NCBI RefSeq assembly: GCF_056712565.1 | Contig: NZ_CM160072.1 | Direction: 5' to 3' (one strand) | DNA length: 64,000 bases | In this document: positions 38,832 through 46,483 of the stretch, piece after piece | How the letters are laid out: each line of letters begins with the position of its first letter | How positions within the stretch are numbered: the first letter of the stretch is position 1 | The notes under the pieces: model-generated | Told to the model about the DNA's origin: nothing | Database searches by the model: none | Seen by the model: the letters and a program-made list of their open reading frames with translations, nothing else | Position numbers and translations under genes: made by a program

Positions 38832-38916
38832 GCCGAAGTGGCGAAATCGGTAGACGCAGTTGATTCAAAATCAACCGTAGAAATACGTGCCGGTTCGAGT
38901 CCGGCCTTCGGCACCA
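38832..38916 (+). tRNA. leuX: tRNA-Leu (anticodon CAA)
   Basis: 85-nt sequence gccgaagtggcgaaatcggtagacgcagttgattCAAaatcaacc...ggcacca with long variable arm and encoded CCA. Confidence 0.95.
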
Positions 38917-40390: not shown

Positions 40391-40539
40391 ATTATTCTAG
40401 GATTATTTTCTTTGTTAAAAAAGACAAACGGTATTAACTGATGTATTTACTATTTACCGCTCCCTGCAGGGGGGATTATCAGAATCCGCGGTTATTCATT
40501 ATTTATATACATTCAATAAAAAAGTAACTGGATTTGCCC

Positions 40540-41445
40540 CTATATTTCCAGACACCTGTTATCACTTAACCCATTACTGGCTTGCTGCCGTAGATATTCC
40601 CGTGGCGAGCGATAACCCAGTGCACTATGCGGATGCCATTCGTTATAATGCTCGAACGCCTCTGCAAGGTTCTTTGCTGCCGTTAACCCGTCTGGTTTGG
40701 GCATGACACTGATGTAGTCACGCTTTATCGTTTTCACGAAGCTCTCTGCTATGCCGTTACTCTCCGGACTCCGCACCGCCGTGCTCTTCGGTTCAAGCCC
40801 CAACATCCGGGCAAACTGCCGTGTTTCATTAGCCCGGTAGCATGAACCATTATCCGTCAGCCACTCTACTGGAGACGCCGGAAGCTCGTTGCCGAAGCGG
40901 CGTTCCACCGCTCCCAGCATGACGTCCTGTACTGTTTCACTGTTGAAGCCGCCCGTAGTGACCGCCCAGTGCAGTGCCTCACGGTCACAGCAGTCCAGCG
41001 CGAACGTGACTCGCAGTTTTTCTCCGTTATCACAGCGGAACTCGAACCCGTCAGAGCACCATCGCTGATTACTTTCTTTCACAGCCACTCTGCCTGTATG
41101 TGCCCGTTTCGATGGCGGTACAGCAGGTTTTCGCTCAAGCAACAGCGCATTCTGGCGCATGATCCGGTAAACACGTTTGGCATTGATCGCAGGCATACCA
41201 TCAAGTTCTGCCTGTCTGCGAAGCAGCGCCCATACCCGACGATAACCATACGTGGGCAGCTCTCCGATAACATGGTGTATACGGAGAAGCACATCCGTAT
41301 CATCAGTGTGACGACTGCGGCGGCCATCCATCCAGTCATCGGTTCGTCTGAGAATGACGTGCAACTGCGCACGCGACACCCGGAGACAACGGCTGACTAA
41401 GCTTACTCCCCATCCCCGGGCAATAAGGGCGCGTGCGCTATCCAC
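40540..41445 (-). CDS. insD: IS2 transposase OrfB
   Basis: 301 aa DDE transposase within IS2. Confidence 0.9.
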
Positions 41446-41768
41446 TTTTTTGCCCGTCCATATTCAACGGCTTCTTTGAGGAGTTCATTTTCCATCGTTT
41501 TCTTGCCGAGCAGGCGCTGGAGTTCTTTAATCTGCTTCATGGCGGCAGCAAGTTCAGAGGCAGGAACAACCTGTTCTCCGGCGGCGACAGCAGTAAGACT
41601 TCCTTCCTGGTATTGCTTACGCCAGAGAAATAACTGGCTGGCTGCTACACCATGTTGCCGGGCAACGAGGGAGACCGTCATCCCTGGTTCAAAGCTCTGC
41701 TGAACAATTGCGATCTTTTCCTGTGTGGTACGCCGTCTGCGTTTCTCCGGTCCTAAGACATCAATCAT
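41403..41768 (-). CDS. insC: IS2 OrfA (HTH)
   Basis: starts [26 protein letters not shown]; overlaps insD in the -1 frame. Confidence 0.85.
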
Positions 41769-42099
41769 CTGCTCTCCAATGACTAGTCTAAAAACTAGTA
41801 TTAAGACTATCACTTAAATAAGTGATATTGGTTGTCTGGAGATTCAGGGGGCCAGTCTAGTAACCTCATAAAAAATCCTGTACTCACAGGGTGATGCGGG
41901 ATAACTGACGTAAGGAGTGCTGCAGGGATTTGATGGTCCCTTGTGCTGATATGAATACGGATATTTTATACAGAATACTTTTCAGTACAAGCGACTGTAT
42001 TACAGTCTGCCATATATGATTACCTGTGATCAGGAAGAATAAGTGGCTGAGGTTTCAAACTGTCTGCCGGTATATTCCTCTCTCCCTTAAAAACCATAA

Positions 42100-43330
42100 C
42101 AGGTTAGTTATCTTCGTCTGTCAGCGGATTGAATGGCGGTATATTTTCAGTACAAATACCGGTCATCCACTGAAAAATACCTGCGAAATGACGGGCACTG
42201 ATTTTTCTACTGACGGGCTGATGAGACGTTATGTCACTGGCGGTAATAATCAGTGGCACACTGTAGCCTCCCTGCACATGACCATAATGATGAACAGGAT
42301 TGGCACTGTCGCTGACCGACAGCCCAAGGCCAGAAAAGTAAAGCATGGCGAAATGACGTGAGTACCGGCGAAGGATACCATCAAGCTGGCCAAGAAAGTT
42401 ATCCAGTTTACTGATGCTGGCGAGGTAACAGGCAATTTTTCGGGGATACTGCTCCAGGTAATTATTCGGCTAGGAGTTAAGGCTGTCACACGGATTTGGA
42501 TGAGAACCCATCATGTGCAGGAAAATTATCTTCGGAGAGGATGTATCCGCCAGCGCACGTTCTGTTTCCTGTAACAACAGTTTGTCATCTGTTTTACGGG
42601 AAGCGAAGCTGCCTTTCTTGAGGAAAGTGGCATGCTCCGCATCAGAAGCAATAACAGAGATGCGTGTGTCATGCCCCCCAGTTTTCCTTGATTGGATATC
42701 CACCATGTGCTGTATCCTGCTTTTGCTGCCAGCGCCACCACATTGTTGCCGGAATCAGGGTTCTGCTCATAGTCATAAATCAGTGTCCGGCTCAGGGAAG
42801 ACACTGTACTGGAGGCTGTCGAGGTATAATCGTCAATAAATAAACCGGGTGCCGTATTCAGCCACGGTGTGGTTGGTACGGGATAGTCATACACTGACAT
42901 ATAATCCCTGCGCACACTCTCACCAGTGACAATAACAATCGTATCATATAACGGTGCTCCCGGCTGGATTTTCCAGTTGTCAGCCCCGTGCTACTCAGTT
43001 GTTCATAACGCTGCATTTCACGTAATGTGTCAGTTGTCCCCACAACTGTTCCTTTAACCATCCGCAATGGCCAACGGTTTACAGAGCATAATACGAATAG
43101 CCGTAGAGCCAGCCAGTTACGGTGGTCGCGATGGTGTGTCCGCCAGAAAATCACCACGAATACCAGAATCGCGGCACTGACCAGAAAATGATAAACAGGA
43201 AACACGGGGCGGTTCACTTTGCTTTCTCCTGTAGTGTTTTCTGTAGGTTCTGAACCGGTTCTAGCGGGGTTGTGAGGCTGATGGCAATCGCCGGGCTCTT
43301 CCTGCATGTTACACTGGTACTGCAAGAGGG
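42100..43330 (-). pseudogene. yjgX: EptA/sulfatase-family phosphoethanolamine transferase remnant, broken into several frames
   Basis: adjacent minus-strand ORF fragments with sulfatase-type motifs (HMMGSHPNPCDSL, VPLIITASD, DYMSVYDYPVP) and an upstream membrane-domain fragment. Confidence 0.6.
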
Positions 43331-43649
43331 GGCCTTCGCTCCTCTGACATTACTCAGTATTTTCACTACTACACCCCATCTGCCATCCATAACAACCGAT
43401 TCACCCCCTCGCGAGGCGTTGTTGCCCGTCACCCGGACAGACACCGTTATGGATTTCTCTTGTTGCACGATCGATCAATTGTTATGCATGCTGACACCAC
43501 AACCCCGGTGGGTATGACCGATGCCTTTCTCACTCTCTTCCCGGTCATCGTCGGCCTTCCCCGTTATTGTGGCGTGTCAGCACCCTCGACGGCATTTCGA
43601 TGGCTGCTCAGTGTTCACTCACGTTACGGCCCGCATAACCCGTTGACTT

Positions 43650-44015
43650 CCTGAAGAAGTCGTTTCAGGGAGAGATTCAGCCCTTTTGTTACCTCCTGGA
43701 CCGCTTCTTGTCCTTCCAGTCGGAGCGAGAGTTAGCCGGGGCGGACTTTCACCGACGGAAAGATCGTGCATTTCAAGGCACACACAACAATATCTGCGAG
43801 CGTGCTATCCGTCCGGTCGTTATGGGACGAAAGGCCTGGTTGTTCGCTGGTTCACTGGTGGCCGGGAACCGCGCGGCACAGATAATGAGCCTTCTGGGAA
43901 CCGCAGTCTGGAGCCACATGCTTGGCTGACGGACGTCCTGACGCGTCTGCCGGAGTGGCCGGAGGAGAGGTTGGCTGAGTTACTGCCTCTTGAGGGCTTT
44001 ACCTTCTTCGGGTAA
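43650..44015 (+). pseudogene. yjgZ: IS66-family transposase C-terminal remnant (109-aa ORF plus overlapping frame)
   Basis: two overlapping frames carry ERAIRPVVMGRKAWLFAGS...AAQIMSLLGTA and HAWLTDVLTRLPEWPEERLAELLP, the conserved C-terminal IS66 transposase region. Confidence 0.6.
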
Positions 44016-44515
44016 GTGATACCTGCCGTCAGGTGTTTGTGCACCGGGCCATAACCTGCAGTTGGGAATTGAACGCCTGACAACAGGAAATGAGCTAGAG
44101 CAGTAAACACGCGGGCTGACAATGGGTCAGAATATGAGTTAGCCCGGCGTTATTCCTGGGGTCAGTACTTCAGATCTAGCCTCCGGTACCAGACTAGCTA
44201 GCCCCTACGCAACCAAATAAATCAACCATCGTCAGAGTGCAATCGTTCATATACACTGTCGGTGATGCGCTAAAAAATGCGTTAATGTTGAGTTCCTCGA
44301 ACCCTTACCAATTAAGGGACATAGCCAGATACGCAACTGGCTGATGCAAGCAGTCTAATGTCTTTAGATCCGCTGGCCTGCGGGCATGACAATGTCAAAC
44401 AGTCAAAGATTGTGGCGTTGACGGTCAGTCTTGGGGACAAAAAAGCTCAGTATTCTCGTTGGCAACCAGATAATTTAACAGTTGATGCTGAAACGAAATA
44501 GGCATCTTGGTTCTG

Positions 44516-45941
44516 TAATGCCAGTCAGTTAAGCAACTGACTGGCTCTTTTTCGGGGCTGTGGGGTATTTCCAGGGCCTCTCCTTTACCACTCTCGGGAA
44601 GGCCCTTTCCCTTCTTGTCGGTAATTTCACAAGTTGTCCCATACTTGCAAGATCGCGCATCAGCTCCGGTATACGTCCCGGTGAAGCGCCCTGCAATGTT
44701 ATCAGCATTCTCATCACCATTCCGCATGATTCTGAGAAACTCAGTTGATTCGGCCAGTAACCTTTCAGATGTTCCGCCATTTTAATCATCTGATATCTCA
44801 CCAGATTATAAGCCAGTAAGACACCCCACAGCTCTTGCTCCACAAGCTCCGGCTTTTTACTTCTCAGCGTCAGCCTGCTCCGTTGCATCGTCTGTTTTAT
44901 CTCCCTGTATCCCAGTTCGATTTCCCAGCGATGACTGTACAGATCCCCCATTTCTCCTCCGGGGAAGCGCATGGCGTCCGTCATCGACGTCAGCAGATGG
45001 CAGACTTTTCCTTTGCGCGTCACGGTCAGCAGGCGGGCAGTCACTTCATTTCCCAGTCCCGGCCACTTTTTTCGTGCCTGCGGGCTGGTTTTCAGCTTCA
45101 CCAGATGATCGCCTTTACCCAGTTTTCTGATCTCTTCATATTGCGCTCCCTTTCTGAGAGGTATCATCCAGTGGCGGTGTTCTCCCGCCAGGCTCCAGGC
45201 ATTTAACAGTCCCAGTGAGTAATAACCTTTATCCATTAACGTCAGAGTGTTATCGCCGGTTTGTTCTATAAGTTGCTCAGCAAGCTCATTTTCGCTGTTC
45301 TTCATCGTGCCGAAGGCTGCAGCCGTCAGCAGATGGCTGGTCAGTTCCATCTGGCAGACCATTTTGACCTGCGGGTAGAGCGCCGGGTTCCCGGCATGTG
45401 TCTGGCGGGGGAAGGCTGCATCGTTCTCTGGTGTATCCGGTGTGCGCCAGAACACACCATCGATGGCCAGCAGGGTCAGGCCGCACCAGTGCGGATGCGG
45501 CGTGGCGTTATGCCAGAGCTGCGCTGTTTTCGTGAACACGCGGCGGACAGCCTCACTTCCCAGGCGCTGGCGGGCCTGAATAACGGCACTGGGGGCAACG
45601 AAGGGGCGATTGCCCGGCAGCATGATGTCCAGGCGATTCACAATCTGGTGAAGAGGTTCTTTACGCTCAAGCGCCATGCCAACAATACACCAGACCATCA
45701 TTTCGAGGGGAAGACGGCGCTTGCGTAGCGTTACAGTACCTGATTCGGCAAGGCAACGAGAGATGAGTTCGGGGTCGAGGTAATCCCCCAGAGAAGTCAG
45801 TGGGTTACGCAGAGAATCGTAACGGGATACCAGATCAAGAGCCTGTCCAATGTGCATAAAAAAATCCGGAAACAAGTGAGCGTTTCCGGATTCTTACACA
45901 GCCACTGGATCGGTCAACTGATCCTTAACTGATCGGCATTA
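44516..45941 (-). mobile_element. IS4, 1426 bp, flanked by 12-bp direct repeat atcttggttctg
   Basis: ends taatgcc...ggcatta; identical 12-mer at 44504-44515 and 45942-45953. Confidence 0.9.
44529..45875 (-). CDS. insG: IS4 transposase
   Basis: 448-aa ORF filling the element. Confidence 0.9.
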
Positions 45942-46050
45942 ATCTTGGTTCTGGTGTTTGTAACAAACTATCAGCTACAAAAATATGCTCAATTTGTGAC
46001 ATCAGTAACAAAACGCGTTTTGTTATGTGGATTGCTTGTTTTTTGATCTG

Positions 46051-46073
46051 GTATAACAGGTATAAAGGTATAC
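46051..46073 (+). promoter_or_regulatory. Nan box: three direct GGTATA repeats (NanR operator type) upstream of yjhB
   Basis: ggtataacaggtataaaggtata read directly about 410 bp upstream of the yjhB start. Confidence 0.65.
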
Positions 46074-46483
46074 AGAAAAGCAAAGAAATACTGCAAAGGA
46101 AAACAGCTATAACGTAAGCTAAAGTAATAACCTCTCAGTCTTTCCTCATTTGACGAAGGGAGTTTTATTCAACCTGAACGGACTACGAAAATGAGCACAA
46201 TGAATAAGTCAATTTTTGAAGCAGGGTTGAACTGTGCCAGTGGTGGAATATCTGGCGAACATTGTTTTTTGTTGGTGACCCAAAACTGTAGGTGGGTATC
46301 AGTTTTATCTTTCATAGAGTGAAATATGTTAAGAAGAAATGGAGGAAAAGATTGTACTGATTAGGTATTGATAACAATCAATAGTACTGGCGTATTTGAA
46401 GACAATATAATTATTTCTGGATATTGTTGAGGCTCCCTAATATTTACTTTAAGGGCTATATTAGAATAACACAGGAAACAAAT

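Follow-up and report, generated by a model that had tools for sequence, protein, structure and literature searches.

In the 64,000-nucleotide stretch of E. coli DNA analysed here (the window; contig NZ_CM160072.1 of RefSeq assembly GCF_056712565.1), a transposase gene is enclosed by two copies of a perfect 12-bp repeat, raising the question whether these copies mark the exact limits of an intact IS4 insertion, and whether an element found at the same place in many other genomes is still a mobile one. We conclude, with a probability of about 0.97, that a complete IS4, the type element of its family and known in K-12 as insG, is present here and is flanked by a true target-site duplication; both the element and the site are already known.

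Genomic setting

The insertion site is intergenic, lying between an IS66-family transposase remnant and the promoter of nanX (yjhB), in an island next to tRNA-Leu (leuX). Upstream of IS4 are found leuX, an integrase gene, an IS2 copy, a phosphoethanolamine-transferase pseudogene and the IS66-family remnant, and downstream the gene pair nanX-nanY (yjhBC). The tRNA-Leu gene (anticodon CAA, corresponding to leuX) at 38832-38916 marks the boundary of the island; in K-12, leuX is likewise followed by a tyrosine-recombinase integrase gene.

In the pseudogene debris to the left of IS4, Rfam model RF02003 (group II intron D1-D4-4) gave a full-length match on the minus strand at 43619-43758, with a score of 69 bits (gathering score 49). 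The match overlaps the beginning of the ORF that represents the C-terminal IS66 remnant (43686-44015; Pfam DDE_Tnp_IS66_C). Since no further intron domain was found in 42000-44520, this match is probably an intron fragment.

Boundaries of the element

The element and its termini comprise the following features:

44504..44515, no strand: target-site duplication copy 1 (ATCTTGGTTCTG), from repeat and inverted-repeat analysis; the empty alleles of IAI39 and H10407 each have it a single time
44516..45941, minus strand: IS4 element, 1426 bp, with the transposase on the minus strand and the transposase-proximal end at 45941
44516..44533, no strand: terminal inverted repeat at the transposase 3' end (TAATGCCAGTCAGTTAAG), 18 nt, from the inverted-repeat pair
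45924..45941, no strand: terminal inverted repeat at the transposase 5' end (CTTAACTGATCGGCATTA), 18 nt, from the inverted-repeat pair
45942..45953, no strand: target-site duplication copy 2 (ATCTTGGTTCTG), from repeat and inverted-repeat analysis

The two terminal inverted repeats are complementary at 16 of 18 positions. Neither copy of the 12-bp repeat can be extended: copy 1 is preceded by C and copy 2 by A, the last base of the element, while copy 1 is followed by T, the first base of the element, and copy 2 by G. The duplication is therefore exactly 12 bp long, and the element spans exactly 1426 bp, from 44516 to 45941. The preliminary description had placed IS4 with a perfect 12-bp target duplication at 44504-45953, and these coordinates are right, spanning the element together with both repeat copies.

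By our own arithmetic, about 120 chance-identical pairs of 12-mers are expected in 64 kb, so that a lone pair of this length means little, and it could be argued that the repeat arose by chance or pre-existed and does not mark the element boundaries. The probability that such a pair abuts the outer ends of the 18-bp inverted repeats is, however, only about 4^-12 (6e-8); here both ends are abutted exactly, and a search of both strands of the window found ATCTTGGTTCTG at these two places only. Together with the single 12-mer of the empty alleles, by which the comparison described below refutes it, this leaves the coincidental repeat with practically no likelihood.

Empty sites in other genomes

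A comparison with empty-site alleles had been proposed as the check on the duplication. Our empty-site query joined two flanks of 600 bp each, the left one having a single 12-mer at its end, and was run against 5,426 complete E. coli genomes. The query matched across the uninterrupted site in 169 of them, in a single piece and at 99.4-99.5% identity among the matches listed. In the two empty alleles that were read, those of IAI39 and ETEC H10407, the 12-mer occurs once and the flanks are continuous, which confirms that the duplication is real and was created by the insertion.

Identity and coding capacity of the element

The element carries a single gene:

44529..45875, minus strand: IS4 transposase ORF (insG), with a TTG start at 45875 (448 aa) or an ATG start at 45857 (442 aa)

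This ORF is uninterrupted and without frameshift, and its stop codon (44529-44531) lies inside the terminal inverted repeat 44516-44533. Its product matches Pfam Nterm_IS4 (3e-33) and DDE_Tnp_1 (3e-31; 109 bits against a cutoff of 23) and contains the Y-(2)-R-(3)-E-(6)-K signature at residue 313. This signature, located in region C1, defines the transposases of the IS4 family, for which a DDE domain and a transposase gene without frameshift are further criteria (PMC2266710). Within the family, the IS4 subgroup is tabulated with sizes of 1400-1650 bp and ends of the form -AATR--------WTW (PMC2266710, Table 1); the 1426 bp of the present element fall within that range, and its end, TAATGCCAGTCAGTTA, with AATG at positions 2-5 and TTA at 14-16, fits the pattern. 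The description of the element as apparently intact is thus borne out by both inverted repeats, the uninterrupted ORF, the Nterm_IS4 and DDE_Tnp_1 domains and the YREK motif.

Its designation as IS4 holds as well. At least 13 complete E. coli genomes contain copies with 100% identity to the element, annotated in RefSeq as 'IS4-like element IS4 family transposase', insG; the element differs by one base from the insG element of K-12 MG1655 (1425 of 1426 bases identical), with which it shares the length of 1426 bp, the inverted repeats, the insertion site, the orientation and the 12-bp duplication. In the K-12 annotation, insG is part of the KpLE2 phage-like element (PMC2859166). The sole difference, T at window position 44700 against C in K-12, is nonsynonymous and affects codon 392 of the 448-codon ORF, which reads ATA (Ile) here and ATG (Met) in K-12. 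Among 16 genomes sampled across those carrying this junction, only one matched the Ile sequence exactly. No second copy or fragment of IS4 was found in the 64-kb window.

With IS10 (Tn10) and IS50 (Tn5), the family members whose mechanism has been characterised, the element has in common short terminal inverted repeats and a single-ORF DDE transposase bearing the YREK signature, but IS10 produces duplications of 9 bp and IS50 of 8-9 bp, and both have other end sequences (PMC2266710, Table 1). The IS4 protein has an additional Nterm_IS4 domain compared to theirs, and no similarity between them and IS4 was detectable by phmmer against PDB chains. In this search of all PDB chains, the transposase had no relative at E<=1, so that its link to Tn5 is one of family classification and not of structure. 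The IS231 subgroup resembles IS4 in its 10-12-bp duplications, its YREK transposase and some target specificity, yet differs in having CAT ends instead of the -AATR ends seen here and is almost wholly restricted to Firmicutes (PMC2266710).

Mobility and target choice

Copies of the same element at other loci bear on both its mobility and the length of its duplication. In APEC E18055, an identical 1426-bp IS4 lies inside yicI, splitting the gene, with a 12-bp duplication (CAGACCTGGCTG); in BEN5202, another lies between rpoD and mug, with a duplication of 13 bp (CACCTTTTCGGTG). We verified that all three IS4 sequences are identical, and the Ile variant is accordingly the one present in both extra copies. 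That 12 bp are characteristic of IS4, as had been stated, is thus true insofar as this length is typical, but it is not unique, since identical copies elsewhere have 12 and 13 bp; a duplication of 12 bp lies within the IS4 range and is no fixed value. The older IS4 literature gives a target duplication of 11-13 bp. Table 1 of PMC2266710 lists the IS4 subgroup with duplications of 10-13 bp.

The occurrence of identical copies at other loci points to recent transposition, and this IS4 variant has probably moved not long ago; judged from this distribution, the copy in the window would itself be competent for transposition. One could instead regard it as structurally intact but practically immobile, a fixed resident passed on together with the nanXY island. 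In keeping with this, the same junction is found in 965-966 of the 5,426 genomes, among them strains of the K-12, B (BL21) and C lineages as well as extraintestinal pathogens, and genomes that bear IS4 have a median of one matching place, out of roughly 5,500 such places in all. Against it stand the identical 1426 bp at other loci, with fresh duplications of 12-13 bp and one gene split, the up to 32 IS4 places in some genomes, and the intact ORF, inverted repeats and catalytic signature; we consider a fixed resident improbable.

Members of the IS4 family are described as transposing by cut-and-paste (PMC2266710). By analogy to Tn5/IS50 and Tn10/IS10, the transposase would bind the 18-bp ends and excise the element, whose 3'-OH ends would then be joined to the two target strands at points separated by 12 bp; the direct repeat of this length would result when the single-stranded gaps left on both sides are repaired. 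Work of the 1980s arrived at AAA-N20-TTT as an IS4 target consensus. At all three sites examined, we find AAA in the flank on one side, 3-5 bp away from the duplication, and TTT in the flank on the other, 3 bp away, in the arrangement AAA-N20-TTT here and with N19 at the yicI and rpoD-mug sites. Target choice thus appears to follow a loose AAA-N19/20-TTT frame, as far as three sites can tell. A limited literature search found no paper on IS4 target specificity (galT, pheS).

Filled and empty alleles

IS4 occupies this junction in 965 of the 5,426 genomes when the whole element and its flanks are considered, and in 966 when only the left junction is. Across the left junction, identity is 99.8-100% for most of the sampled filled alleles, while the empty alleles listed differ from the flanks of the window by about 6 SNPs in 1200 bp, a pattern which suggests one main filled haplotype.

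The allele of E. coli EC12 (NZ_CP060933.1), aligned to window positions 44116-46700, departs from this haplotype. It carries IS4 at the identical position and with the identical 12-bp repeat, on flanks that have five of the six SNPs by which the empty allele of IAI39 is marked; two further SNPs lie in its IS4, and the accession of its nanX protein is the one found in empty-site strains. This allele would be explained if IS4 had inserted once, long ago, and loss or recombination had followed, and equally if it had inserted a second time into a target that it prefers.

More generally, the shared insertion might not go back to one ancient event, IS4 having inserted repeatedly into the same target (a hot spot), or empty alleles being secondary products of precise loss or recombination. 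The EC12 allele argues in this direction, as does the AAA...TTT frame common to the three IS4 sites, which suggests that targeting is directed by sequence. The near-identity of most sampled filled alleles across the junction speaks against it; among the empty alleles listed, moreover, none is closer than 99.5% to the window flanks, and all filled alleles seen have IS4 in one and the same orientation. The pattern of identities fits one main filled haplotype. We regard recurrent insertion or secondary loss as rather unlikely, though worth bearing in mind.

Putative transcription signals within the element

Near its two ends, the element contains sequences that may affect its transcription and translation:

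45890..45917, minus strand: promoter-like site (TTGACC, 16-nt spacer, TG AAGAAT) inside the element, upstream of the transposase start; a consensus match only
45846..45909, minus strand: strong hairpin in read-through RNA, with a core stem at 45860-45895 and the AUG at 45857-45855 paired
44520..44545, plus strand: 11-bp perfect stem followed by a T-run, overlapping the inverted repeat, from inverted-repeat and promoter/terminator scans

The promoter-like site on the minus strand, with its -35 at 45917 and its -10 at 45895-45890, overlaps the 5' arm of the hairpin at the transposase-proximal end; promoter-like matches are no more frequent in this region than in shuffled sequences. In computed foldings, RNA entering from outside reaches -35.4 kcal/mol (z -4.6, with none of 200 shuffles as stable), while transcripts starting at 45880-45886 are essentially unstructured (-0.7 to -3.4 kcal/mol). 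A hairpin forming only in read-through RNA would thus hide the start codon from transcription originating outside the element, and probably does so. It resembles the protection against outside read-through that has been described for other insertion sequences. At the opposite end, the stem with its T-run looks like a terminator for transcription entering there, and Rfam identified no RNA family inside the IS4 element.

The nanXY upstream region

Three landmarks downstream of the insertion define its relation to nanXY. A CRP-like site (TGTGACATCAGTAACA, 45995-46010) and a NanR-type operator of three GGTATA repeats (46050-46072) are both intact, with the insertion 41 bp and 96 bp upstream of them, respectively, and the nanX ATG (46484) lies 530 bp from the insertion point. 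Three GGTATA repeats are reported to form the operator to which NanR binds; yjhBC has such an operator and is NanR-regulated in K-12 (PMC3658417). K-12, with its NanR-regulated yjhBC, carries the same IS4 insertion.

We considered an outward-directed IS4 promoter reading toward nanX and rejected it: no promoter-like site was found on the plus strand in 44300-46500, and hence none facing nanX, leaving IS-driven transcription of nanXY unsupported. Because the insertion lies upstream of both regulatory sites, and because no such promoter faces nanX, the control of nanXY is probably left intact, as read from the sequence.

Symmetric sites are dense in the nanX upstream region (45954-46075). GTTTGT-A-ACAAAC at 45956-45968 stands directly beside the IS4 target, and a perfect 20-bp palindrome, TAACAAAACGCGTTTTGTTA, occupies 46006-46025.

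IS4 is present in about 85% of the genomes that have this nanX-upstream region (965 filled, 169 empty). This occupancy, the distance of 41 bp to the CRP-like site and the second flank haplotype, that of EC12, could be taken to mean that the copy is more than a passenger, held by selection (for example, in insulating or tuning the anhydro-sialic-acid genes nanXY) or placed at a true insertion hot spot. We hold this to be very unlikely.

The island compared with K-12

The possibility that the window is K-12 itself was considered and rejected: the half that was compared (31999-64000) is non-collinear with MG1655 at IS2 and at 49885-54236. The island differs from that of K-12 in the position and orientation of IS2 and in a 4.3-kb segment that takes the place of K-12's IS30.

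The IS2 copy at 40529-41859 has a 5-bp duplication, GTAAC; compared with the IS2 of MG1655, it lies in opposite orientation, about 75-80 bp away, and is 97.7% identical, indicating an independent IS2 insertion into the same short stretch of the leuX island. In the non-collinear segment 49885-54236, at the place where IS30 sits in MG1655, a gene for a betaine/carnitine/choline-type BCCT transporter (667 aa; 51200-53203, minus strand; Pfam BCCT, 1e-198) is flanked by IS3-family transposase genes at 49587-50901 (plus strand) and 53351-54507 (minus strand). The leuX island of the source E. coli is thus like that of K-12, and not identical to it.

Implications

With its exact boundaries fixed, the mobile element will not be mistaken for host sequence, a result of little import beyond correct annotation. 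The polymorphism between filled and empty sites (965 versus 169 complete genomes) could be of use as a marker in strain typing, and for IS4 itself the EC12 allele raises a minor question, that of target reuse.
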